IMG/VR virus record: IMGVR_UViG_2541047695_000003 | Origin: a virus | Taxonomy: Duplodnaviria > Heunggongvirae > Uroviricota > Caudoviricetes | DNA length: 34,489 nt | Strand: one strand, 5' to 3' | Shown here: piece after piece, positions 1-34,489 of the stretch | Layout of the letters: each line of letters begins with the position of its first letter | Numbering within the stretch: position 1 is the stretch's first letter | Notes under the pieces: generated by a model | Seen by the model: the letters and a program-made list of their open reading frames with translations, nothing else | Databases searched by the model: none | Told to the model about the DNA's origin: nothing | Position numbers and translations under genes: made by a program

Positions 1-51
1 AAATTAGATACTAAATATATACGTGAAGGATGTTGAGCTGGTCAACGTCTA

Positions 52-81
52 CGGGGGAGAACATCCCCCGCTAACCTTTTT
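52..81 (+). terminator. Hairpin CGGGGG-agaacat-CCCCCG with a T-run a few nt downstream; possible terminator of a gene ending just inside the window
   Basis: Inverted repeat 52-57/65-70 read directly; T5 at 77-81; frame-1 stop codon at 34-36. Confidence 0.4.
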
Positions 82-100
82 CTTATTTGAGGATTTACCT

Positions 101-202
101 ATGGTTGAATTTTTGATTTATCTGGCTGTAGGATTAACTATCGTATATTCACTGGCACATATTGGCATTTCTACTTTGTGTAACGCTTTCAAGTATCATT
201 AA
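101..202 (+). CDS. Hydrophobic micro-protein, 33 aa, one predicted TM helix
   Basis: ATG 101 with GAGGA about 8 nt upstream; hand translation MVEFLIYLAVGLTIVYSLAHIGISTLCNAFKYH, TAA at 200-202; below the 60-aa cut-off of the ORF track. Confidence 0.45.
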   Translation: MVEFLIYLAVGLTIVYSLAHIGISTLCNAFKYH

Positions 203-14180: not shown

Positions 14181-17100
14181 ATGCAGTCGATCCAATTTAA
14201 ACGAACAAATGTTTCTGGCAAAAAACCAACGCCGGAACAATTACAGGTCGGTGAGGTAGCAATCAACCTTAAAGACCATGTTATTTTTACCAAAGACCGA
14301 GATCATGAAGTAGTTCAAATCTCTGTTTCTCCTGAAACTCACGCGGCACTAGAATCTAAAGTTGATGCTAATAAAAAAGAACTGGATAGCACAATTGCAG
14401 TAAATGACCGCAATATTCACGCTAAAGTAGATGAAATTAAACAAACTACTGATGCAACCATCGCAGCAAATCACGCAGAAATTAACAATAAAGTTGATGT
14501 AATTAAACGCGAAACCGACGCGACAATCGAGGCCAATAAAAATAAAGCTGCTTCCGATCTTGCTGGTGTTAAAGCTGAATTGTCGGATACCATCAACGCT
14601 AATAAAAATGCGGCTGCTGTAGCAACTCAGGAACTGGACACCCGCATCAATAAAAAAGTTGATGATATTAAATCCCGTACCGATGCAACCATCGCAAGCA
14701 ATGACAAAGCAATCAATGACAAAGTTGATTTGATTAAGGCAGAAACTGACCGCACTATCGCAGCAAATCACGCCTATGCGGAAAATCAGTTAACTGACAC
14801 CTACAATAACCTTACTGGTGTGATTGCAGCCAATAAGCAAGAGGCAGCGGATAACGTCGCAGCATTAACCCGTGATGTTGAAGCCAAAAATACAGCAATT
14901 CATAGCAAAGTTGACAATAACAAGTCTTACACTGATTCTGAATTGGCACGTTTAGAAAGCCGTATTGATGCAGCCGATGGATCTGCTGATGGCAAGTACA
15001 TCAAAAAACACGTAAACACTTATACTGATGGTTATTTGCTGTCTAAGACCGCAAACTATTTTGATGATCCAAATGCGCGTAATCTTGATTACTTTGGTGC
15101 ATTCCGCATGAATGACCTGGCGGGTCATATTGCAATGATCTTGCATGTTCCGCATCCATCTGGTGTTAATCATGCTCGTGGCTTCGAGTTCACTTATGGG
15201 TCTAATCCACATGCTACTGTAAGAACATACGGCTATGATGAATTGGGACATTTGGCATATTCTCACCGCATGTATCATGAAGGTGATAAACCTACTCCGG
15301 CTGAAATTGGCGCATATTCGAAAGCAGAAATTGACCGACTGTTCCAGAAGACGCTTAATTTTGGTATCGAGGGTGGTTGGTTTAAACTAGGCACTTTGAC
15401 AATGCCACAACAACACGGTCGCACGGCTAAGATCCGTTTGGTTGGTGGTAACGGTTATAACGTAGGACATAATGGACAAGCCAATATTATCGAATTGGTG
15501 ATTCGATGCGGCAACAATAGCCCGAAAGGTGTTGTATTCAATGCGTATTATACTATTTGGCATCATGAACAACATTTTTGCGCTATTCCAACCGATGGCG
15601 ACAATTACGATCTTTACGCTTACTACGGTGCACATACAGGATTTGTTTTAGCAGAATATCAAGTTTCTTCCGGTGGTGTTTCTTTAAACCTGTTGGATAC
15701 TCCTGAATATCTGGGTGGTGAAAAACCTGTTGCAGATGAAATTTTTGATGCTCTTAACATTTCATCGTTCAATAACTTTAGCAACCGTGGGACGTTAAAT
15801 TTTGCTGGCAATCATCAAGGCCAATATGATATTGAGCATTTAAACGAACAACCGACAAATGCTAAAAAGATGTTGCGTCGCTTCCGTAGTTGTGCACCAG
15901 CTACAATCTGGCATGAGACAGTTGATGATAACGCATATCGTCTTGCTACTGGATACGAAGATACAAATCAGGAATTATTGCTGTCAGCAACATCCGGGTT
16001 ACATGTCAAGAAATTAACATTGGATGGCGGTGTTACTGGAAATTCTGGTATTGATATTCGTCGAGGACCAAACGAATCAAGCCATTTTAATTTCATGGAT
16101 TATCGCACTGGACAAGATGTTCGTAATGGCTGGTTTGGCTTCGGTGATGGTCAGACCAAAGATTTTATTTGGTGGAACGATAACGGTCAAAACTCTATAA
16201 ACCTGATTGAAGATGGTGAATTGCATATTACTGGCGGTAAAGGCCAGAAAATTGTAATGAATAGCGAAGTTGCATTATCTGAAAATGCTCGTTTGGCTGT
16301 CAAAGGTGGTAACTATGGTTTAATCCTTCGTAATGATGGTTCTAGCTTCCATATTCTTACTACCGATTTAAAAGATTCCTTTGGGACGTGGAACACTCGT
16401 AGACCATTTAGTTATGATTTCGCCGAAGGTGGATTAGATCTAGGTGGCACAGCTACCGCACGCTGTTTACATCTGGGAATTGATGGTAGCACCCGCATCG
16501 AAGATAATATGGTGTTTAGATCAGGGTCTCGTCAGTCAATGGACTATATTGAATTAATCCATTGGGGTAACAGTAATACCGCTCGTAACAACGTTTTGAG
16601 TATGAAAGACTCGAAAGGATTCCTTGCTGAATTTGAACGCGTGGGGGGTACTAACGGCGTTAAAACCAGATTCTTTGGCGAAACATTCACTGACGGTACA
16701 TTATACCTAAATCAGATGAATAATAGCTCTGAACGATTCTCTATCAATAACTGGGGAAATTCAGAAGTTGGTCGCGCGGCAGTGATGGAAGTCGGTGATT
16801 CCAAAGGTTATCACTTCTATACTGAACGTAGGACAGATAACAGTTTGATGTTTGATGTTGCTGGCGCTTTTACTGTGCATGGACCTTCCGGGATTACTAT
16901 CAAAAACTCTGCTGGTGCTCGCCACGTCTGGTTTAGAGATGATAGCGATACGGAAAAGGCTGTTATCTGGGCTACAGATGAGGGTATTTTACATATTCGC
17001 AATAACCACGGTGGACAATTTACACATCACTTCCAGGGCGCGATGATTAAACTGGAAGGGCGTGTTCCTTATGCCGCAGATCAAGGACTTATCCGTGGTG

Positions 17101-17705
17101 AGGTTTCTGGTGGTGCATATGTTGCATGGAGAGACCGACCTGCTGGTTTGTTGGTTGACTGTCAACAAAGCGTTGATAGTGCTCATGCTATTTGGAAAGC
17201 GGTTGATTGGGGGCGTAACTACATCGCTGCTATGGACGTTCATTGTCCCGGTGATAGTAATAATACTGCGGCAGCGGTTCTTCATGTTCAGGGTGCTGAT
17301 TATCAATTCCATGCAAGTGGAGAATTTCATGCCACTGGTAACGGAAACTTTAACGATGTTTATATTCGTTCCGATCGTCGTCTGAAAATTAATGTTGAAG
17401 ATTACGAAGAAAATGCGGTGGATAAGGTAAATAAACTCAAAGTTAAAACCTACGATAAAGTTAAATCTCTTAATGACCGAGAAGTTATAGGTCATGAGAT
17501 TGGTATTATCGCACAGGATTTACAAGAGGTATTACCGGAAGCTGTTAAAACCGCAAAAATTGGTGGTTTTGATAACCCAGAAGAAATTTTAACAATTTCA
17601 AACTCCGCAGTGAACGCGCTTTTAATTAAAGCGGTCCAAGAAATGAGCGAAGAAAATAAACTTCTTCGTGAACGTCTTGCTGCAATTGAAGCTAAATTAG
17701 GGTAA
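14181..17705 (+). CDS. Tail fibre with N-terminal anchor, coiled-coil repeats and a C-terminal self-cleaving chaperone domain
   Basis: 1174 aa; MQSIQFKRTNVSGKKPTPEQLQVGEVAINL fibre N-terminus; about 6 repeats of KVDxIKxxTDATIAxN; C-terminal SDRRLK motif. Confidence 0.9.
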   Translation: MQSIQFKRTNVSGKKPTPEQLQVGEVAINLKDHVIFTKDRDHEVVQISVSPETHAALESKVDANKKELDSTIAVNDRNIHAKVDEIKQTTDATIAANHAEINNKVDVIKRETDATIEANKNKAASDLAGVKAELSDTINANKNAAAVATQELDTRINKKVDDIKSRTDATIASNDKAINDKVDLIKAETDRTIAANHAYAENQLTDTYNNLTGVIAANKQEAADNVAALTRDVEAKNTAIHSKVDNNKSYTDSELARLESRIDAADGSADGKYIKKHVNTYTDGYLLSKTANYFDDPNARNLDYFGAFRMNDLAGHIAMILHVPHPSGVNHARGFEFTYGSNPHATVRTYGYDELGHLAYSHRMYHEGDKPTPAEIGAYSKAEIDRLFQKTLNFGIEGGWFKLGTLTMPQQHGRTAKIRLVGGNGYNVGHNGQANIIELVIRCGNNSPKGVVFNAYYTIWHHEQHFCAIPTDGDNYDLYAYYGAHTGFVLAEYQVSSGGVSLNLLDTPEYLGGEKPVADEIFDALNISSFNNFSNRGTLNFAGNHQGQYDIEHLNEQPTNAKKMLRRFRSCAPATIWHETVDDNAYRLATGYEDTNQELLLSATSGLHVKKLTLDGGVTGNSGIDIRRGPNESSHFNFMDYRTGQDVRNGWFGFGDGQTKDFIWWNDNGQNSINLIEDGELHITGGKGQKIVMNSEVALSENARLAVKGGNYGLILRNDGSSFHILTTDLKDSFGTWNTRRPFSYDFAEGGLDLGGTATARCLHLGIDGSTRIEDNMVFRSGSRQSMDYIELIHWGNSNTARNNVLSMKDSKGFLAEFERVGGTNGVKTRFFGETFTDGTLYLNQMNNSSERFSINNWGNSEVGRAAVMEVGDSKGYHFYTERRTDNSLMFDVAGAFTVHGPSGITIKNSAGARHVWFRDDSDTEKAVIWATDEGILHIRNNHGGQFTHHFQGAMIKLEGRVPYAADQGLIRGEVSGGAYVAWRDRPAGLLVDCQQSVDSAHAIWKAVDWGRNYIAAMDVHCPGDSNNTAAAVLHVQGADYQFHASGEFHATGNGNFNDVYIRSDRRLKINVEDYEENAVDKVNKLKVKTYDKVKSLNDREVIGHEIGIIAQDLQEVLPEAVKTAKIGGFDNPEEILTISNSAVNALLIKAVQEMSEENKLLRERLAAIEAKLG
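17370..17702 (+). other. Peptidase S74-type intramolecular chaperone auto-processing domain of the fibre
   Basis: SDRRLKINV...IGIIAQDLQEVLPEAV...LLRERLAAIEAKLG matches the endosialidase / T5 L-shaped-fibre C-terminal chaperone pattern. Confidence 0.75.
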
Positions 17706-19948: not shown

Positions 19949-22378
19949 ATGACAAAACATATAGTAACAATAGAAGGGGATAATAAAGGGCTAAAGAGAA
20001 GTACCAATGAAGCCGCCGACCTTCTCGATAGTTTGTCTGAAAAGGCAAGTAATATTGATTTTGGTGGTGGCTTATCTGGTCTGACTGGATCTCTTCGTGG
20101 GATCGCTGGCTCTGCTGGTTTAGCTGCTGGTGGTATCGGCTTAGTTGCGACCGCAGTGGTTGCAGCCGCTAAAGCTGGCGCGGAATACGTTAAACAATAT
20201 TCAGAAGTATCTAAGGCGACCGGACTCTCGATTGAATCCCTTCAAAGACTGGAAAAGGAATTTTCTGGTACTGGCCTAACAGTTGAAAAATTCGGTGATA
20301 TCAACAAAGACACCTTAGATAAGATGGGTGATGCATGGGCTAACGGTGGTGGTATTGCTGATGACTTAGAATCGGTTGGCCTTAAGTTAGAAAACTATGC
20401 TCACTTCATGACTGATCCGCAAGGTGGTATGAAAGCGGCGATCCAAGTGTTCTATGACATGAAGAAAGCCGGAAAATCAATGGCTGAAATCAAGTTCATG
20501 ATGGAATCTTTAGCCAGTGATTCAAGCCATATGACCAGCCAGCTTGAGAAATATAATACTGCTCAAGAGGCGATGATCGCTATTCAGAATCAATCTGTTA
20601 ACGTCACCGAAGAAAACGCTAAAAAATATGATAAATTTTCTCAAAATATCAATAAGCTGGAAAATAACCTGAAAGGTGTCGGTATGACCATTTCTGGTCC
20701 GCTGGTTGATAGTTTAAACTGGTTATTTGACTGGTTTAATATTGATTGGGAAAAGAGTTCTCTATTCAGGGCATTAGATCGACTGAATAAAGAAGGCAAG
20801 ACCGCAACTGGCGGTATTCTTAACGCCAACCATAAAGACGCTCAAAAAATTATTGACAAGTACAATAAAGAAAAGCGTTGGAATAATCTGGCAGATTGGG
20901 AAAAGGCCGCGATCCGTGGTGCTGGTGTCGATCCTCGTACTGCTGGCTTTGATGTTGAAGGATTTAAGAAACGTTTTGGTGATTCTTATAAGAAAAATGG
21001 CTCTCTGATTGTTGTCGATAACGGGGAACATCTAACCCGCAAGGCAGATCCTAACCGTGATTTGACTATACCAAATAAACCAGTAAGACCAGAATCATTG
21101 GGTAAGTCTGGTAATGAGAAGAAAGCCGAAGAAGAAGCACGCAAGAAAGCGGAAGAGGCAGCTAAAAAGGCTAAGGAAGCCGCAGAAAAAGCACAGAAAG
21201 CACGCGAGGATGCAATCAAGCGACTGAATGCACTTGATGTTAAATTGCAAGGGCAAGTTGCAGCGTCTATCACTTCTCAAAATAGCCAGTTGCAAAACAG
21301 CTTAAAAGATGTGAACGACGCGTTAGCTCTGGGCTTAATCTCTCAGGAAGACGCAGCCGCGAAACGCCAGGCGCTAATCGATCAGAATACTGAAAACGTT
21401 TATAAAATGATGTTGGGTGCTGATCCGATTGATGCTCTGAATGCTTTAACACAATTGCAACAAATCAGGGACAACGAGCTAGAAAGCCATAAACGGTTAC
21501 TTGATGGTAAAGCTATCTCCTACGAAGAATATATGCGTCGTGTGAACGATACCGAGCAAAACTATTCTCAGATTGAAAATTCTTTACAGGGAATGGATGG
21601 TTATAAAACCAATCAATTAACTAGTAGTTATGATTATCAAGACTCAAATAATCCGTTTGCTAAATTTAATGCAATCGATAAAGAGAAATCGGATGCTGAA
21701 CAAGATTATAAGACCGATAAACTCAAGATTGATGGGATCACCGATCCGGCTAAACGGATGGAAGCATTAGAAAAACTCAATGAAAACCATCAAAAACGAA
21801 TGGCTGCAATTGAGAAGAAATATGCTGATGCTCGCCAGTCAATAGCCGATGATATGTACGGCGGTTTTGCTGCTGCAATGACTCTCTTCGGGCAGGAAAA
21901 CACTAAAGCTATGCAGATGGCTTTCAATGCTCATAAAGCATTCTCTATCGGACAAGCGACGGTGAACATGTGGACGGCTGCTACCGATGCATGGAACGAT
22001 CCGACCAACGTCACCACAGGTCAAAAAATCGCGGCTGCTGCATTGGCTGTTTCTCAGAACATGGGGAACATCGCAAACATCAAGTCTACTAACGTTAGCG
22101 GTATGGCTCATGATGGTATTGATAACATCCCTCGTGAGGGTACATGGTTGCTTGATAAGGGTGAACGAGTAGTTGATCAGCGTACTAACGGTGATTTGAA
22201 AGACTTCCTTGCTGCTCAAAAATCAGGTGGTGGTAACTCTCAGCCGATTGAAGTTAATGCGCCTTTGAACATTAACGGCAACGTTAATAGCTCAGACAAG
22301 ATGGTCATGGATGCTATCAAACGTCACGCTAAGTTTGTTGCTCAGGCGATAGAAGACGTTCAGCGTCGTAAGATGTAA
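19949..22378 (+). CDS. Tape measure protein
   Basis: 809 aa, Gly/Ala hydrophobic segments, long coiled-coil and low-complexity KKAEEEARKKAEEAAKKAKEAAEKAQKA, position after G/T. Confidence 0.9.
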   Translation: MTKHIVTIEGDNKGLKRSTNEAADLLDSLSEKASNIDFGGGLSGLTGSLRGIAGSAGLAAGGIGLVATAVVAAAKAGAEYVKQYSEVSKATGLSIESLQRLEKEFSGTGLTVEKFGDINKDTLDKMGDAWANGGGIADDLESVGLKLENYAHFMTDPQGGMKAAIQVFYDMKKAGKSMAEIKFMMESLASDSSHMTSQLEKYNTAQEAMIAIQNQSVNVTEENAKKYDKFSQNINKLENNLKGVGMTISGPLVDSLNWLFDWFNIDWEKSSLFRALDRLNKEGKTATGGILNANHKDAQKIIDKYNKEKRWNNLADWEKAAIRGAGVDPRTAGFDVEGFKKRFGDSYKKNGSLIVVDNGEHLTRKADPNRDLTIPNKPVRPESLGKSGNEKKAEEEARKKAEEAAKKAKEAAEKAQKAREDAIKRLNALDVKLQGQVAASITSQNSQLQNSLKDVNDALALGLISQEDAAAKRQALIDQNTENVYKMMLGADPIDALNALTQLQQIRDNELESHKRLLDGKAISYEEYMRRVNDTEQNYSQIENSLQGMDGYKTNQLTSSYDYQDSNNPFAKFNAIDKEKSDAEQDYKTDKLKIDGITDPAKRMEALEKLNENHQKRMAAIEKKYADARQSIADDMYGGFAAAMTLFGQENTKAMQMAFNAHKAFSIGQATVNMWTAATDAWNDPTNVTTGQKIAAAALAVSQNMGNIANIKSTNVSGMAHDGIDNIPREGTWLLDKGERVVDQRTNGDLKDFLAAQKSGGGNSQPIEVNAPLNINGNVNSSDKMVMDAIKRHAKFVAQAIEDVQRRKM

Positions 22379-27912: not shown

Positions 27913-27959
27913 ATCTAAATAATTCTGCCATTAAATTATATAAAAATATCGGGGGCGTA

Positions 27960-28238
27960 ATGACTGAAATTATATATGGCGGTATCGGTGTTATCGCCTT
28001 AATTTGTGGTGGGCTTTGGAGACTTCACCGAAATCAATTAGCCACAGAAAATAGATTGTCGAAATTGGAATCCAGCGACGCATTGTTAAACCAGAAGTTT
28101 GAGACGATGCAGAATAACCATACTCAGATTGCTGAACGTGTTTACCAAATGGAACAAACACTACACGGTATAGAGAAGAAAGTGGTTGCGATGGACGCCA
28201 AATTTGACCAAGTTCTCGACATACTCAAACAAAAATAA
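27960..28238 (+). CDS. N-terminal TM anchor plus coiled-coil protein (holin or i-spanin candidate)
   Basis: 92 aa; IIYGGIGVIALICGGLW then heptad-rich sequence; GGGGG SD. Confidence 0.75.
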   Translation: MTEIIYGGIGVIALICGGLWRLHRNQLATENRLSKLESSDALLNQKFETMQNNHTQIAERVYQMEQTLHGIEKKVVAMDAKFDQVLDILKQK

Positions 28239-28256
28239 TAATAAAGGGGTGAATAT

Positions 28257-28427
28257 ATGAAGAATAAACTTAAGAAATATTTTGGTTATCTCTTGATTGT
28301 CGCCCTCACTTATAACGTAGCTATTAGACCTCTGCTAACGTCCTTTGGGCTTGAACTCCCGGCTATGACCGTGGATGAACAATTGCTAAGGACACTGGCG
28401 GGGGTCTTTTCGTTATTAGGGGGCTAA
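28257..28427 (+). CDS. Small membrane protein, 56 aa (holin candidate)
   Basis: Hand-found ORF below the track cut-off: MKNKLKKYFGYLLIVALTYNVAIRPLLTSFGLELPAMTVDEQLLRTLAGVFSLLGG; AAAGGGGTGAA SD; stop 1 nt before the next ATG. Confidence 0.6.
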   Translation: MKNKLKKYFGYLLIVALTYNVAIRPLLTSFGLELPAMTVDEQLLRTLAGVFSLLGG

Positions 28428-28428
28428 C

Positions 28429-29112
28429 ATGGCAACCAGTACCAATAAACGAAACGCTCTAAGGACAAAGAAAGCGTTACGCCAATGGACTGATAAAGCA
28501 ACCGATACATTCGAAAGGGCGATAGGGGAAGGGGCGATCTTTGCTGCTCGTGCACTCCAGAAGAAGATTAACAAGAATGTTGATAGACCTACTCGATGGA
28601 CTCAGCAAGCTGTAGGTAATACCAACTACAAGAACCGATCAGGGACGAGACACCAAATCTTCATCAAGGGCGCAAGGGATAAGGACAAGAAGATCGGCAG
28701 TCAGGATGACTATCTGAAACACTATTTCGATGGTGGCAAAATCAATAAGCTAGTTCCAATCGCTAACGGCAAGGTCTTAGACGCCCACGGGAACATTAAG
28801 GCCATCAAAGGCGGTAAGATGATGCGTAACCTCGAAAACGGCAACTTCATCAAGGTAGAGAACAAGGAAGGGACTTTTATCATGAAGAAGTACAAGCCTA
28901 AGAAATCCCGAACCAAACGCGCTAGGAATGGATCGGCGGTGGCAAAACGTCGCTTAGAGAAACGCATACAGAAACAGAGCAAGCGAATTGTTGCCGTTAA
29001 ATCGGATAAAATTTCTACTCGTTATTCGACGCTAGGATCGTGGGAAAGCAACGAAGCAATGATGCTTGAAAACATCAATAAGCACATTAAATCGCGCATG
29101 AAATACGTTTAA
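28429..29112 (+). CDS. Highly basic 227-aa protein, unknown function (virion or tail-completion role is only a guess)
   Basis: Lys/Arg-rich (KKYKPKKSRTKRARNGSAVAKRRLEKRIQKQSKR); tightly coupled to the preceding gene. Confidence 0.8.
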   Translation: MATSTNKRNALRTKKALRQWTDKATDTFERAIGEGAIFAARALQKKINKNVDRPTRWTQQAVGNTNYKNRSGTRHQIFIKGARDKDKKIGSQDDYLKHYFDGGKINKLVPIANGKVLDAHGNIKAIKGGKMMRNLENGNFIKVENKEGTFIMKKYKPKKSRTKRARNGSAVAKRRLEKRIQKQSKRIVAVKSDKISTRYSTLGSWESNEAMMLENINKHIKSRMKYV

Positions 29113-29122
29113 TCCATAAATA

Positions 29123-29144
29123 CCCTCATAGAAACTTATGGGGG
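29123..29144 (+). promoter_or_regulatory. SD-sequestering hairpin upstream of 29151
   Basis: CCCTCATA / TATGGGGG stem; the GGGGG SD lies in the 3-prime arm, 6 nt before the ATG; sequence-related to the 22385-22422 hairpin. Confidence 0.45.
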
Positions 29145-29150
29145 TATAAC

Positions 29151-29498
29151 ATGGCTAAAAATATTTTCACTGAATTTCCTACTTATCCGGTCGATCAGCT
29201 TTCCGGTATTTTTATTAATGGCATTAGCCCAGAATCTATGACACATGATTTTGAGGCGAAGAGAGTTAAACATAAACAATATAAAGAATGTATCCGCGAT
29301 CATGAAAAAGGGACCGTGTTTTGTGTCGCTACATTGGCTAAACGTCCTAAGTATCGTTTTCGTGTAGGACAAGAAGTTGATGTGGTTAATCCTTATAGCT
29401 TTAACTGTCTGGGCGATGCACGCGCGGTGTGTGTAGGCACTGCTCCTTATTATATCAAGGGTATGCGCTTTATTGGTTATATCTTCGAAATGATCTAA
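29151..29498 (+). CDS. Hypothetical protein, 115 aa
   Basis: ORF with SD; no motif recognised. Confidence 0.75.
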   Translation: MAKNIFTEFPTYPVDQLSGIFINGISPESMTHDFEAKRVKHKQYKECIRDHEKGTVFCVATLAKRPKYRFRVGQEVDVVNPYSFNCLGDARAVCVGTAPYYIKGMRFIGYIFEMI

Positions 29499-29507
29499 GG
29501 GGGTAAT

Positions 29508-29861
29508 ATGTTAAGTAAGCATTTTTCTCGCAAGGAATTTAAATGTAAATGCGGAAAATGTGATTATGATACAATCGACGCTGAATTACTGGTGATTCTT
29601 GAGGATGTACGAGAGCACTTCGGTAAACCAGTGATTATTAACAGTGGCAACCGTTGCCCGACTCATAACAAGAATGTAGGCGGGGCAGCCAATAGCTATC
29701 ACGTTCGAGGCCGCGCGGCTGACATTGTTATCAAGGGTGTCTCGCCTGATATTGTTCATGCTTATCTTGATGGGAAATATCCTACTCAATACGGCTTAGG
29801 AAAATATAAAACTTTTACGCATATTGATTCCAGATCAAAAAAATCACGGTGGAATGGATAA
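29508..29861 (+). CDS. Endolysin, zinc metallopeptidase of the M15 / LAS type
   Basis: SGNRCPTHNKNVGG, SYHVRGRAAD (H-x6-D) and FTHID second His; AAGGGGGTAA SD. Confidence 0.85.
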   Translation: MLSKHFSRKEFKCKCGKCDYDTIDAELLVILEDVREHFGKPVIINSGNRCPTHNKNVGGAANSYHVRGRAADIVIKGVSPDIVHAYLDGKYPTQYGLGKYKTFTHIDSRSKKSRWNG

Positions 29862-30225
29862 AACAAAAGCGCCTCTGGTGGGCGCTTTTTTGTTAGAATA
29901 TGCTGGCGATGTTAGCTATATTTCTGACCATTTTTTCATTATAGACAAATATACCGCAGATGATAAAGTTGTATTCGACGAAGTTGATCCGTCTCTGGTT
30001 GAAGCAATGAAAGAACCTGAGATCGTCATTGAAGAAACAAAAGAAGAATCTCCAGCAGTTGAACCAGTGGTCGAAGAAGTTAAGTCAGATGTTGAAGAAG
30101 CACCGGAAGTTAAAGTGGAATCTCCGGTAGCCAACATTTTCTCTGACGAAGCAGAACATCGTTCCCCAGCACATGACACTGATTCATTTTGCGATCTTAC
30201 TGGTTTCCAAAACTACAATAATTAA
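29854..30225 (+). CDS. Acidic protein with an uncertain start
   Basis: Open frame with coding-like composition; the only ATGs (29824, 29854) lie inside the end of the endolysin gene, and the frame runs through the terminator hairpin; next ATG at 30007. Confidence 0.4.
   Translation: MDKTKAPLVGAFLLEYAGDVSYISDHFFIIDKYTADDKVVFDEVDPSLVEAMKEPEIVIEETKEESPAVEPVVEEVKSDVEEAPEVKVESPVANIFSDEAEHRSPAHDTDSFCDLTGFQNYNN
29868..29891 (+). terminator. Rho-independent terminator after the endolysin
   Basis: AGCGCC-tctggtg-GGCGCT followed by T6, A-run upstream. Confidence 0.7.
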
Positions 30226-31343: not shown

Positions 31344-33023
31344 TTAAATTCCAAATTCCTGTAATGGACCTGGTATTTCCTCTTCTGGTTTCCAGTTCTT
31401 ATCTGTCAGCATGTCTAAACATGGATGCAGAACAAGCCCGTTGCTCTCCAGAATCTGCCTATCATTGATAGTTTTCAAATCAATGAATATCCGGCCTTTC
31501 CTCGTTCCTCTTGAATTTTCTATTACAACTCTCTGGGTCTTTCCATCGATGTATTCCAGCACAAACAAGTTTTTATTTCTGTCAATCCTGCTACACCCGA
31601 TCCGCTTTAGAGCTTGCTTAATCTTAAACCGGACCTTTAGTCGTTCCTCGTTATAAACATCTTCTAAATCAAATTCTGCGAGCTTCTCCCAGCCTTGAGA
31701 GTCCACAGAATACATTTCCTCTTCTGCCATCTTGATCTGATTGTAGAGTGTTTCACGCTCGCTATTGAGGGTAGTAATCTGATCGGCTAGCTCCTTCGTT
31801 GCTCCTGTCATAGCAGAAAGGGCAATCAGGTTATCAATCTTGCGTGATATTTCATCAACCTGTACTTTCAACGCCGGAACCGGATTAGCCTTGTCCTCAG
31901 CAATCCATATTTTATCAGCCAGCAATTGCAATACAGCTTTCTCTAATTGATCACCTCGAAAACTCCAGTTTGGATGCTCGCAATCAAGTCTACGTGAACG
32001 GGTCGCATCACATGTATAACGATACTGGTCAGAACGTTTGTTCGTTCCCTTCACTTTAACCATAGCGCAACCGCAATGATCACATTTCAATAGGCCAATA
32101 CCACTAAGCAGGGGGATCGGTTTAACTTCTTCCTTGTCTCCAAAGTTCCATGCTCTAGCACCAATATTTTTCTTAAGGTGATAGAACGTAGCATCATCAA
32201 TAACACGAGGGTAATAATCCTTTAACTCATAGTTAACACCATCTACAGAGACTTCCTTGATACCAATCAAAGCGCGGGTATGGAACAACCTTTCAACCAT
32301 TGCCCGTGACCATTTTGAATGCTTCTTGTTGCTTACTGCTGGTGGCGGTGTATATGTCTCGTTAAGGTGATCCAGTATCTCGGCGGTTGAACGTCCATTC
32401 TTCCGTAATTCCACAATCTCCTGAACAACAGGGAAGTATGTAGGATGAGGCAACACATAACCGGAAGTGGTATCCGTCCACCACATATTCTTTCCAACTT
32501 CCTCGATTGCCACTGCCGGATTCTGGGGATTTTCTTGATGGGCTTTAATCTTAATCAGTGCGCTTGAGTTAGTACGATTGCGCTTAGTCTGGCTTTCCTC
32601 ATTACCACGGATGAATAAAAGGATGGAGAACATCAGGTCCATCGGGTTAGCGGTAACAGTATCCAGCGAGTAGATCTTGTTATCCATGCCAGTAACAATG
32701 GTTATTCCCCTACGGATGATTGAAAGGAATAACTCCTGCGCACTGACAATATCGGCACGGGATAAGCGGTCCAAGTTTTCAATGAATAGCCAGCTACCAA
32801 CAGGAACGGATCTACCAATTGCATCAAGGAAACGAGATAGCGCCCCTGTTTTAGAGTTAGCACCCTTAAACGCAGATACACCCAGATCCTGATAATCATT
32901 TACCAGTTCAAGGTCATACTTTGCCGCAACCTCTCTCGCCATCCTGATTTGTCGTTCATAACTCGAACCATCATTCTGACGCATAGACGAGAAGCGAATA
33001 TACGAATACAGTTTAGTTTTCAT
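31344..33023 (-). CDS. int: Large serine recombinase (integrase)
   Basis: KLYSYIRFSSMRQNDGSSYERQ catalytic Ser motif, recombinase domain, zinc ribbon CDHCGC...YTCD...CEHP, C-terminal coiled coil; ATG 33023 preferred over the TTG at 33038. Confidence 0.95.
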   Translation of the reverse strand: MKTKLYSYIRFSSMRQNDGSSYERQIRMAREVAAKYDLELVNDYQDLGVSAFKGANSKTGALSRFLDAIGRSVPVGSWLFIENLDRLSRADIVSAQELFLSIIRRGITIVTGMDNKIYSLDTVTANPMDLMFSILLFIRGNEESQTKRNRTNSSALIKIKAHQENPQNPAVAIEEVGKNMWWTDTTSGYVLPHPTYFPVVQEIVELRKNGRSTAEILDHLNETYTPPPAVSNKKHSKWSRAMVERLFHTRALIGIKEVSVDGVNYELKDYYPRVIDDATFYHLKKNIGARAWNFGDKEEVKPIPLLSGIGLLKCDHCGCAMVKVKGTNKRSDQYRYTCDATRSRRLDCEHPNWSFRGDQLEKAVLQLLADKIWIAEDKANPVPALKVQVDEISRKIDNLIALSAMTGATKELADQITTLNSERETLYNQIKMAEEEMYSVDSQGWEKLAEFDLEDVYNEERLKVRFKIKQALKRIGCSRIDRNKNLFVLEYIDGKTQRVVIENSRGTRKGRIFIDLKTINDRQILESNGLVLHPCLDMLTDKNWKPEEEIPGPLQEFGI

Positions 33024-33036
33024 ACCATTTCCAAAC

Positions 33037-33072
33037 AAAAACGCCCCTACCGCGTATTATAACGATAGGGGC
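33037..33072 (-). terminator. Terminator of the secreted-protein gene, with a TATAAT inside its loop
   Basis: Minus strand GCCCCTA-16 nt-TAGGGGC-G-TTTTT; the loop contains TATAAT (33061-33056). Confidence 0.6.
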
Positions 33073-33086
33073 TAGGTGATTAAAGA

Positions 33087-33506
33087 TTAAAGAATTTCAC
33101 GGCAGCTAATCAGGGAATAAGACGTATCACCTTTTTTAACATCAAATATAGGAGAACCATCAATAGAATGCAGATATTTGATGTAAGACTTACCATCTTC
33201 GGAACCATAATATTCTTCTTTCTCGTTCTTATCTTCTTTCAGTTTCGGGCTTTTGATTGTTTTATCAAATACCGGATCGTTGAAAGCAAATTGACTATTA
33301 TCATCATTCACTCGAACCTTTACACCGATAAAACCACGGTATTTGCCAGACGGCGCATGATAATAACGGTCGCCATCACTCAGGTAGCGTGTATCATCTC
33401 CTTTATGTTCGAAGTAGGAATTGCACACATAATAGGTATAGGTATTAGCATTCGCAGCACCAACCAAACCCAGAGCAAGAACAACACCCGCGATAATCTT
33501 TTTCAT
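33087..33506 (-). CDS. Secreted (Sec signal peptide) Tyr-rich protein, moron-like
   Basis: MKKIIAGVVLALGLVGAANA-NT signal sequence without a lipobox; two Cys; own terminator; adjacent to int. Confidence 0.85.
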   Translation of the reverse strand: MKKIIAGVVLALGLVGAANANTYTYYVCNSYFEHKGDDTRYLSDGDRYYHAPSGKYRGFIGVKVRVNDDNSQFAFNDPVFDKTIKSPKLKEDKNEKEEYYGSEDGKSYIKYLHSIDGSPIFDVKKGDTSYSLISCREIL

Positions 33507-33551
33507 AGTAGAATTTCCTCTTGTTATTTGAATTACGATATATTTATATCG

Positions 33552-33677
33552 TTAAAAGTTGATGCTGATTACCAAACCAAACACAACCGCACCAATCAAA
33601 TCAATCCAGTTAATACACAATCCGCTATATTCTTTCTTGAATGTCTTAGATGAAATGCCATCATGAAATTGTTTCAT
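33552..33677 (-). CDS. Micro-protein, 41 aa, C-terminal TM helix
   Basis: Hand-found: MKQFHDGISSKTFKKEYSGLCINWIDLIGAVVFGLVISINF; GGGGTGA SD. Confidence 0.5.
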   Translation of the reverse strand: MKQFHDGISSKTFKKEYSGLCINWIDLIGAVVFGLVISINF

Positions 33678-33680
33678 TGC

Positions 33681-33761
33681 TCACCCCATACTAACGACAA
33701 GATAAGAAAGACTAATAATAGTTGTGAGACTACCTCCCACGAATGAGATAAAAGCTAACAT
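33681..33761 (-). CDS. Hydrophobic micro-peptide, 26 aa
   Basis: Hand-found: MLAFISFVGGSLTTIISLSYLVVSMG; TGGAGAA SD; its end supplies the SD of the next micro-ORF. Confidence 0.4.
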   Translation of the reverse strand: MLAFISFVGGSLTTIISLSYLVVSMG

Positions 33762-33775
33762 GTTTGATTCTCCAT

Positions 33776-33803
33776 TTAAAAAGCGGTGGGAATTGCACCC
33801 ACC
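33776..33803 (-). terminator. Rho-independent terminator
   Basis: Minus strand GGTGGG-tgcaatt-CCCACC-GC-TTTTT. Confidence 0.7.
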
Positions 33804-33817
33804 AAATTAGAAATTAA

Positions 33818-34204
33818 TTAAGCGCGAACGATGGTCAGAGTATCCAGCAAACCTTTTTCGTATAATTCGAAACACGTTTTATATTGCTCAATCTGGAAAC
33901 CATAGCGGGTGATCTTATTCAGTAGGACAATCGCGCTATTCTCATCTAGGTATTGTCCTTGCTGTCCAATTACATAAGTCTCACGATTCAATCTCAGCTT
34001 ACGGAAACCTTTAACACCTAATTCCTTAGCCACCGCTTTAATCTCTTTAATCTCACCCTCAGCCGCAACATATTCAGCGTCGATAATCTCAGGTGATGAT
34101 CTCAGTGCTACCAGAACTAAGGCCATTGCTTCTTCTTCTGTACGCGCAACACCAGCTTTCTCGAAAGTCATCTCACCAAATTTACGAATCATGATATTGA
34201 ACAT
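33818..34204 (-). CDS. Hypothetical protein, 128 aa
   Basis: ORF followed by its own terminator; no motif recognised. Confidence 0.75.
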   Translation of the reverse strand: MFNIMIRKFGEMTFEKAGVARTEEEAMALVLVALRSSPEIIDAEYVAAEGEIKEIKAVAKELGVKGFRKLRLNRETYVIGQQGQYLDENSAIVLLNKITRYGFQIEQYKTCFELYEKGLLDTLTIVRA

Positions 34205-34216
34205 TGTTTTGCTGCC

Positions 34217-34489
34217 TTACTTCTTGCTGATAAACTCTTTAGCGATAAAGTTGATTACTTCTTTCAGCTTCTTGTCTGTATCGATGCACGCCGGTAATTC
34301 TTCTTTAATCTCCTGCGGCAGATACACATTCCCTTTAAAGTGGAGGAAACCATCATTACCAATCATGTAGGAGAACATCCATTCACAATCGTTATCCGCT
34401 TCCCAGAACGCTACGGTCTCATCGCCAATCAAGGTAATGTCCATGTTGCGACGTGCTGCGTAGTTGATGATTGCTTTGCCGATGTTCAT
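34217..34489 (-). CDS. Hypothetical protein, at least 90 aa, touching the window edge
   Basis: ORF begins with an ATG exactly at the last 3 nt of the window, so the true start may lie beyond it. Confidence 0.6.
   Translation of the reverse strand: MNIGKAIINYAARRNMDITLIGDETVAFWEADNDCEWMFSYMIGNDGFLHFKGNVYLPQEIKEELPACIDTDKKLKEVINFIAKEFISKK

Follow-up and report, generated by a model that had tools for sequence, protein, structure and literature searches.

Three short genes lie side by side on the minus strand at positions 33,087 to 33,761 of IMG/VR virus record IMGVR_UViG_2541047695_000003, a stretch of 34,489 nucleotides (nt) that is called the window below. They encode a hydrophobic peptide of 26 amino acids (aa), a 41-aa protein with a predicted transmembrane (TM) helix, and a 139-aa precursor of a tyrosine-rich protein predicted to be exported. 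A reading made from the sequence alone had treated the three genes as one moron-like unit, insulated by terminators and fit for lysogenic conversion or superinfection exclusion. A comparison of 39 related loci (the window, contigs from RefSeq E. coli, Salmonella and metagenomes, and IMG/VR prophages; single loci are cited by number, as L012) divides this unit in two. The two small open reading frames (micro-ORFs) belong, together with the integrase gene, to the backbone of the prophage, and the 139-aa gene is one of several cargoes that occupy an exchangeable slot.

Layout of the locus

Read along the minus strand, the order is attR, a 90-aa gene, a 128-aa gene, hairpin T1, the 26-aa ORF (micro-ORF 1), the 41-aa ORF (micro-ORF 2), a palindrome, the 139-aa gene, hairpin T2 and the integrase gene int (Table 1). 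Much of this had been anticipated by the sequence-only reading. The 139-, 41- and 26-aa ORFs are all present where it had placed them, on the minus strand, and hairpins with T-runs are found on both flanks at which it had proposed terminators (33072-33043 and 33804-33784). The neighbouring gene is an integrase, as it had said, and more precisely a large serine recombinase by its Pfam domains; the likely start is the ATG of MKTKLYSY at 33023, and the PGAP model has 559 aa. The micro-ORFs, which it had described as coupled, are separated by TGA-GCA-ATG, with a G-rich sequence resembling a Shine-Dalgarno (SD) site, GGGGTGAG, overlapping the stop codon of the first. Its description of the 139-aa product as a Sec-exported, Tyr-rich protein with two Cys agrees with the features described below, and the envelope targeting that it had claimed is what signal-peptide and TM prediction give for the products. 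The 16-bp palindrome was also found, but one base away from the position first reported, and with two unpaired bases between its arms rather than as a perfect 16-mer.

Table 1. Features of the integrase-proximal locus, listed from the integrase gene outward
Feature	Position in window	Strand	Remarks
Large serine recombinase (integrase)	31344..33023	-	Pfam Resolvase, Recombinase, Zn_ribbon_recom; phrog_95
Backbone element IG2: hairpin T2, T-run and promoter-like int site	33033..33084	-	Conserved in all loci
Cargo gene: 139-aa precursor of a predicted periplasmic, Tyr-rich, disulfide-closed 8-stranded beta-barrel	33087..33506	-	
Signal-peptide coding segment of the 139-aa gene	33447..33506	-	Common to the unrelated 81-aa cargo; part of the conserved dock
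Intergenic element IG1	33507..33551	-	Palindrome, extended -10-like box, cargo SD AAGAGGA
Palindrome CGATATAAATATATCG (7+2+7)	33536..33551	.	7-bp arms, two unpaired central bases
Micro-ORF 2: predicted 41-aa bitopic inner-membrane protein	33552..33677	-	Basic N-terminus MKQFHDGISSKTFKK and C-terminal TM helix
Micro-ORF 1: 26-aa uncharged hydrophobic peptide	33681..33761	-	ORF; counterpart in every locus
Hairpin T1 (GGTGGG/CCCACC) and T-run	33774..33804	-	Abuts the micro-ORF 1 SD
128-aa upstream operon gene	33818-34204	-	With the 90-aa gene, phrog_14908 and phrog_6147, both function-unknown families
90-aa upstream operon gene	34217-34489	-	Start codon at window end, about 35 nt from attR

Backbone genes and exchangeable cargo

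Both micro-ORFs and the large serine integrase are present in 39 of 39 related E. coli and Salmonella prophage loci. By contrast, what lies in the slot that runs from the 41-aa stop codon to hairpin T2 differs among the same loci. A beta-barrel protein of 132-139 aa fills it in about 21 of them, a secreted 81-aa protein in 11, and in 3 the 81-aa protein is preceded by a 113-aa protein with a TM segment and a coiled coil. Four loci (L013-L015 and L036) have an empty slot; in these the 41-aa stop runs straight into the sequence that is found 3' of the 139-aa stop in the window. Of 5426 complete E. coli genomes, 56 contain the micro-ORF segment at a coverage of at least 80%, and 26 contain the barrel segment. 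Constant presence thus assigns the micro-ORFs, together with int, to the backbone, and variable presence marks the 139-aa gene as cargo that can be exchanged.

The proposal that the genes are moron-like therefore holds for one part of the cluster: the 139-aa gene is accessory, being absent or replaced in about half of the related prophages (it is carried by 26 of the 56 carrier E. coli genomes), but the micro-ORFs are not. The distinct base composition that is also looked for in a moron was not found in the 139-aa gene, whose GC content of 0.383 lies within one standard deviation of the window mean (0.417, standard deviation 0.034) and is matched by 17% of equal-sized windows that are as low. 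The barrel alleles are mosaic with respect to the peptides: in L006 and L007 the peptides are near-identical to those of the window, and the barrels are only 44-46% identical.

A docking element that opens the slot

The part of the slot that does not vary is its upstream edge. The identical 20-residue signal peptide, MKKIIAGVVLALGLVGAANA, stands on an unrelated 61-aa mature domain in 11 loci (the secreted 81-aa protein, which has two Cys, lies at 985-1230 in L018 and is found in 10 other loci), and a BLASTP comparison of the mature parts of the 139-aa and 81-aa cargoes gives no alignment. Furthermore, about 30 E. coli genomes match the cargo segment only at window positions 33448-33551, that is, over the signal peptide and the intergenic element. 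Most of the alternative cargoes have an N-terminal hydrophobic export or anchor segment when read from their sequences; family searches with them were uninformative except for the 113-aa cargo, which gave a weak match to Rz-like spanins (E 0.0024).

All filled slots open with the palindrome, irrespective of their cargo, and the empty ones lack it. The palindrome forms the upstream part of the 45-nt element IG1, in which a G at 33550 and TATAAA at 33548-33543 make up an extended -10-like box; across loci the consensus is (T/C)GnTATAAA, with the G at -14 universal and a T at -15 in about half. Identity to relatives is 71-96% for IG1 and 46-80% for the silent third positions of its flanking genes; IG1 and IG2 together are 71-100% identical between loci, against 43-80% at silent sites, apart from the near-identical int of L008. 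From these features the box is a candidate for the promoter of the cargo, and a consensus promoter scan of the window did not list it. As RNA, the palindrome folds at -5.7 kcal/mol (z -3.4). In L012 a symmetric double change, CGTTATAAATATAACG, preserves the symmetry, which is compatible with either an operator or a weak RNA hairpin.

The window contains one exact copy of the palindrome. A repeated operator was considered and set aside, the only further candidate being a site with three mismatches at 27936, which is not significant; this site (27936-27951) happens to lie directly upstream of a 92-aa ORF in the lysis region. The palindrome was also ruled out as attP, because the attR junction lies beyond the 90-aa gene.

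The flanking hairpins

Hairpin T2 is a strong structure of 11 pairs (stem 33072-33043, -20.5 kcal/mol, z -3.6), present in all loci, including those with an empty slot, and the IG2 element that contains it is 78-100% identical across relatives. In L013 the stem has a compensatory change from A-T to C-G. The persistence of T2 in loci without cargo places it in the backbone, from which the cargo borrows it. Its loop contains TATAAT (33061-33056), placed 17 nt downstream of TTTAAT (33084-33079); across loci the TATAAT in the loop is conserved, with TTnAAn 17 nt upstream, and the scan scores promoters of 10/12 at this site in L013 and L003. Judged by these motifs, T2 probably both ends transcription from upstream and starts that of int.

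Hairpin T1 (stem 33804-33784, 7 pairs, -11.4 kcal/mol, z -2.6) is less constant. It was found in 7 of the first 9 loci, where it accompanies micro-ORF 1 even if the upstream gene differs, and L009 has it in the compensatory form GGCGGG/CCCGC. In the Salmonella loci L003 and L004 it is absent, and the 26-aa ORF there abuts or overlaps upstream ORFs. Since T1 abuts the SD of the 26-aa ORF, a promoter for micro-ORF 1 would not fit between the two. In the window as a whole the terminator scan gave 3 terminator-like sites, against 1.0 +/- 0.9 in shuffled sequences.

The micro-ORFs

Both micro-ORFs are genuine genes under purifying selection. Every locus has a 40/41-aa ORF that starts with MKQFHDGISSKTFKK and ends in a TM helix (Kyte-Doolittle peak 2.51 at residues 25-39 in the window). 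In the alignment of this family 18 of 41 columns are invariant, and the most conserved part is the N-terminus, which is predicted to be cytoplasmic. The ratio of nonsynonymous to synonymous substitution rates (dN/dS) is about 0.1-0.3 wherever it could be computed, with synonymous sites near saturation (pS, the proportion of synonymous differences, up to 0.9). By the positive-inside rule the 41-aa protein would lie with its N-terminus in and its C-terminus out, the basic N-terminus facing the cytoplasm.

The position of the 26-aa peptide is taken in every locus by a hydrophobic ORF of 25-29 aa, in three sequence types. For most divergent pairs dN/dS is about 0.2-0.3, as it is between types A and A' (the E. 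coli and Salmonella types), with L009 as the exception; a third and apparently unrelated type (MKLLEL...) occurs in L009 and L036. Micro-ORF 1 has an SD, GGAG, 8 nt upstream, and the arrangement of its stop codon suggests that the peptide is translationally coupled to the 41-aa ORF. Such tight junctions are common here, ATGA start/stop overlaps or 3-nt gaps being usual between neighbouring ORFs across loci. The two micro-ORFs of the window are also in one frame, with TGA-GCA between them, and in a 747-bp ENA contig (P0019) the 26-aa ORF and a 40-aa ORF are naturally fused in frame, the TGA being read as W.

Routine annotation largely passes over these genes: PGAP annotated the 41-aa ORF in E. 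coli MEI003 and missed it in PI7, and it missed the 26-aa ORF in both. No homologue of the 41-aa protein turned up when one genome per species was scanned, which argues that the family is confined to a minority of strains. Neither the 26-aa nor the 41-aa sequence was found in those supplements of an Enterobacteriaceae small-ORF (smORF) census that are in text form (PMC11188072), and a literature search gave nothing specific on the two peptides or on a prophage that integrates into hicB.

Salmonella relatives have a second cargo slot, placed between the micro-ORFs and filled by a cytoplasmic ORF of 62 aa or a 75-aa ORF with a signal peptide, joined by ATGA overlaps (L004 5649-5837; L013 4816-5004; L015 4777-5004). 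Directly 5' of micro-ORF 1 the same relatives carry a lipoprotein of 105-106 aa (lipobox-like STGC/ISGC; phrog_13472; L004 5253-5570, L013 4417-4737), a further envelope-directed cargo within the same operon.

The 139-aa cargo of the window

The 139-aa protein begins with a canonical Sec signal (MKK, a hydrophobic core and ANA|N), and its mature product has 119 residues, among them 13 Tyr (10.9%) and two Cys. Invariant across the homologues are C28, C135 and a DK.I.SPKLK motif. AlphaFold returned a confident all-beta model, with a mean predicted local distance difference test score (pLDDT) of 86.9, from which the protein is predicted to be a periplasmic 8-stranded antiparallel beta-barrel in which Cys28 and Cys135 probably form a disulfide.

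The family is tiny. A search of 5.8 billion clustered proteins gave eight matches; among 1.8 billion representatives a profile search found nine, of which eight are this narrow family or short fragments of it. The ninth, a 1752-aa Bacteroidetes protein with SprB repeats (E 7e-5), was treated as a chance match of composition. The phage collection held no DNA or protein match to the barrel. The structure search that the sequence-only reading had proposed for the secreted protein gave no family for the modelled barrel: Foldseek found no significant match in the PDB, the structural matches are generic (the unrelated barrels Cap15 and OmpW score 8.1 and 7.7), and the beta-hairpin of ExbD, which appeared in a PDB profile search, was dismissed at E 0.3. 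For all three proteins of the locus, Pfam, PHROGs, PADLOC and NCBIfam returned nothing informative, the best PHROGs matches being families of unknown function at E 0.015-0.06.

Proposed explanation and its alternatives

The explanation that we prefer, with a little less than even confidence in it as a whole, is a locus of two layers, backbone and cargo dock, with a role in protection of the envelope. The locus would be the integrase-proximal end of a leftward operon (attP, 90, 128, 26 and 41 aa, [cargo], int) of a temperate E. coli siphovirus-type prophage of about 36 kb that would integrate into hicB by means of its large serine recombinase. The first layer would consist of two coupled, single-pass inner-membrane micro-proteins kept by every relative. 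The 41-aa protein most likely binds a larger inner-membrane protein, as other bacterial micro-membrane proteins do, and would present its conserved N-terminus to that partner at the cytoplasmic face. The second layer, the dock, would begin right after the 41-aa stop with the palindromic, extended -10-like element, the SD and the Sec signal peptide, and unrelated mature domains would be swapped behind it by recombination. In the window the cargo would be a 119-residue periplasmic barrel of eight strands, closed by Cys28-Cys135; its transcript would end at the backbone hairpin T2, the loop of which may carry the -10 of the likely int promoter. With the micro-proteins at work in the inner membrane and the barrel in the periplasmic space, the products may shield an infected or lysogenic cell's envelope from other phages. 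This last step, protection or exclusion at the level of the envelope, is the leading guess, although a doubtful one; it is made because most of the cargoes look envelope-directed and because such genes are classic moron content (PMC3594210).

Several observations weigh against this explanation. In the IG1 element of the window, position -15 is C and not T, and no -35 is conserved. One locus has a 348-aa cytoplasmic protein in the slot, a cargo that is not directed to the envelope. In L036 the unrelated MKLLEL-type peptide stands beside a 41-aa protein that differs from that of the window at only two residues (GLCINWI to GACINWS), a pairing that speaks against a tightly co-evolving heterodimer. 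No homology to exclusion, defence or lysis families was found for any of the three proteins in Pfam, PHROGs, PADLOC or NCBIfam. The remaining points concern expression. No promoter of their own was detected for the micro-ORFs, whose operon runs from attP toward int; at attR only about 35 nt of phage DNA precede its first gene, which argues against strong expression of the micro-ORFs in the prophage state, and T1 would lower their transcription further. In the circular genome the only promoter-like site upstream is in the attL arm. This site, TTGAGA-16-TGcAAAAAT (L016 19768-19806), matches the consensus at 9/12 and overlaps the terminator hairpin of a gene with an LprI-family domain. Weak as these consensus matches are, they suggest that transcription of the 90-128-26-41 operon comes across attP, for the most part in the circular genome. 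The micro-ORFs may thus be expressed mainly from the non-integrated genome, which would fit an early or establishment function as well as it fits exclusion. From the same site, transcription would cross attP and enter the 90-aa gene in the circle, and in the prophage it would run antisense into hicB and hicA.

Nearly as likely as envelope protection, and equally a matter of doubt, is a role of the micro-proteins in the life cycle. They would then be factors made with int from the circular genome, after infection or excision, that modulate FtsH, a divisome component or the holin and so favour the establishment of lysogeny or time lysis, and the barrel would be unrelated cargo. Such a role would suit backbone genes present in 39 of 39 loci that share their operon direction with int, an operon that integration parts from its sole upstream promoter-like site, and a 41-aa protein in which the cytoplasmic N-terminus is the most conserved region. 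It finds no counterpart in homology to lambda CIII, Kil or other known factors, and the promoter assignment on which it leans is a 9/12 consensus match only; low-level expression in lysogens from a hybrid promoter or by read-through is possible. In a more specific proposal, which we consider rather unlikely, the micro-proteins would be the core of an undescribed integrase-linked membrane device, for exclusion or for establishment of lysogeny, and the palindrome, SD and signal peptide would be a docking site for periplasmic effectors that this phage lineage interchanges by recombination, in effect a small cassette system for envelope effectors. The symmetric palindrome would in that case act as a regulated promoter, either operator-like or bidirectional.

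The original proposal, now unlikely, was a single moron of three genes, insulated by terminators and active in the repressed prophage as a module for lysogenic conversion or exclusion. Hairpins do flank the three genes, all the products are envelope-directed by prediction, and int is adjacent. The single insulated unit nevertheless fails on several counts, since the micro-ORFs are invariably present and the 139-aa gene is variable, no promoter space remains between T1 and the first SD, the Salmonella relatives lack T1 and have their micro-ORFs coupled to genes upstream, T2 is kept in empty slots, and the GC content lies within one standard deviation of the window mean. An alternative for the barrel alone, and an improbable one, is that it is a periplasmic inhibitor of peptidoglycan hydrolases resembling PliC/MliC, comparable to T4 Spackle or bacterial PliC and aimed at animal lysozyme or at the muralytic enzyme of an incoming phage tail. 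PliC and MliC proteins carry the signature motifs SxSGAxY and YxxxTKG. The predicted periplasmic 8-stranded antiparallel barrel is a true likeness to them. Against it, these motifs are not among the invariant columns of the barrel family, Pfam has no MliC match at E <= 0.1, no PliC or MliC appeared in the PDB profile search, and the fold match is no better than that to unrelated barrels, which score as high or higher, with no significant Foldseek match to the PDB.

Least probable is that the 26-aa peptide, or both micro-ORFs, is a depolarising peptide of the type I toxin or abortive-infection kind, held in check by antisense transcription from the palindrome. The peptide is very small and uncharged, and the plus strand of the palindrome reads cGaTATATT, a possible extended -10; it is, on the other hand, translationally coupled within an operon rather than stand-alone, no antitoxin RNA was found in Rfam and no match in PADLOC, cargo genes with ATGA overlaps occur between the two ORFs, and the fusion variant P0019 is tolerated. 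Assignment to a type I toxin-antitoxin system was rejected on these grounds, the peptide being hydrophobic but operon-coupled, interrupted by inserted genes and without a relevant Rfam RNA. A holin, antiholin or spanin was likewise rejected: the endolysin and candidate membrane ORFs lie elsewhere, at 27960-29861 on the plus strand, and the three proteins have neither a lipobox nor a coiled coil.

Comparison with known systems

Phage morons of the HK97 gene 15 type were reportedly described by Juhala et al. in 2000. The 139-aa gene resembles them in being present, absent or replaced in otherwise collinear prophages, in having a promoter-like element 5' and a terminator 3', and in encoding a predicted envelope protein. 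It differs in that the promoter-like element and the signal peptide form a fixed dock reused by different cargoes, the terminator belongs to the backbone, and the GC content does not stand out; the micro-ORFs do not qualify as morons, and there is no sequence similarity to gp15/YebO. In phage T4, Imm is an inner-membrane and Sp (Spackle) a periplasmic superinfection-exclusion protein, encoded by early lytic, non-adjacent genes, and Sp is helical. The likeness to this pair lies in the combination of small inner-membrane protein(s) with a small periplasmic envelope protein; unlike Imm and Sp, the proteins of the window share no homology with them, a barrel replaces the helical Sp, and the periplasmic partner is optional. 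Another comparison is offered by Pseudomonas phage D3, in which the serotype-conversion cluster places a 31-aa peptide, Iap, beside int, together with an O-antigen polymerase and an acetylase. Iap, too, is a very small hydrophobic peptide encoded next to an integrase, and it acts on an inner-membrane host protein, but no O-antigen polymerase or acetylase accompanies the peptides of the window, which are not known to resemble Iap in sequence.

Among bacterial proteins, MgrB, AcrZ, MgtS, KdpF and CydX are regulatory micro-membrane proteins that bind larger membrane proteins. The window micro-proteins resemble these, and the products of the smORF census (PMC11188072), in being predicted single-pass proteins of 25-50 aa that are under purifying selection and usually unannotated; they differ in being prophage-encoded and in matching no described family. 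Accessory envelope genes are the expected, even classic, exclusion or conversion content of phage morons (PMC3594210), and HK97 gp15 itself is a small inner-membrane protein that excludes superinfecting phage (PMC3594210; Cumby, Davidson & Maxwell 2012). Among the three window proteins no homologue of known exclusion or defence families was found (HK97 gp15/YebO, SieA, Imm, Sp, Cor and Llp, and the PADLOC set). The locus belongs with the accessory envelope genes and the micro-membrane proteins of prophages, and its dock architecture is possibly general.

The analysis adds two micro-protein families that routine annotation misses, the 26-aa peptide in both RefSeq loci inspected and the 41-aa protein in one, and both belong to the backbone of a prophage lineage that about 1% of complete E. 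coli genomes carry. It also provides a natural example of accessory envelope proteins exchanged behind a fixed promoter-like element and a common signal peptide. If exclusion is the true function, new small proteins that block phage entry would be in hand, with relevance to host range in phage therapy; if it is not, the micro-proteins become candidates for a new lysogeny-establishment factor.

Prophage context

The window is a nearly complete temperate prophage of the siphovirus type, with terminase, portal, a head-protease fusion, a tape measure, a J-like tip and an M15 endolysin. The prophage is carried by 60 of the 5426 complete E. coli genomes, with matches that include enterotoxigenic (ETEC) and O55:H7 strains, and the GenBank phage collection held no close relative of it. 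In E. coli MEI003 and PI7 it is about 35.7 kb long and lies inside the antitoxin gene hicB, a remnant of which is found just past the 90-aa gene; in the prophage inserted there, int is about 1.45 kb from attR. The part upstream of T1 (33818..34489) differs between loci, as do the attB sites, which are in hicB, in ycdX (Salmonella) or in ydiJ. A core resembling TTTGG(A/T)TTCCCTAA is common to all the prophage junctions. Integration splits the hicB gene of the HicAB toxin-antitoxin pair into two pseudogene halves (L001 9589-9744; L016 19433-19744).

At the left end of the prophage, outside the window, L016 has on the same strand a 255-aa gene (19985-20752) with an LprI (DUF1311) domain of a lysozyme-inhibitor family; in the circular genome it would directly precede attP and the operon studied here. 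The phage seems rich in small membrane proteins, for besides the micro-ORFs two small hydrophobic ORFs, of 59 and 57 aa and each predicted to have one or two TM segments, lie on the plus strand near the left end of the window (23-202 and 256-429). The lysis region (27960-30225) contains the M15 endolysin and two small membrane ORFs, one of 92 aa with a TM helix and a coiled coil and one of 56 aa, and no recognisable lipoprotein spanin was found in it. The C-terminal half of the 1174-aa tail fibre (14181-17705) is 79-94% identical in DNA to the distal long-tail-fibre genes of T4-like phages (gp37 type), and the presence of such a fibre half in a siphovirus-type prophage points to recent exchange between lytic and temperate phages.

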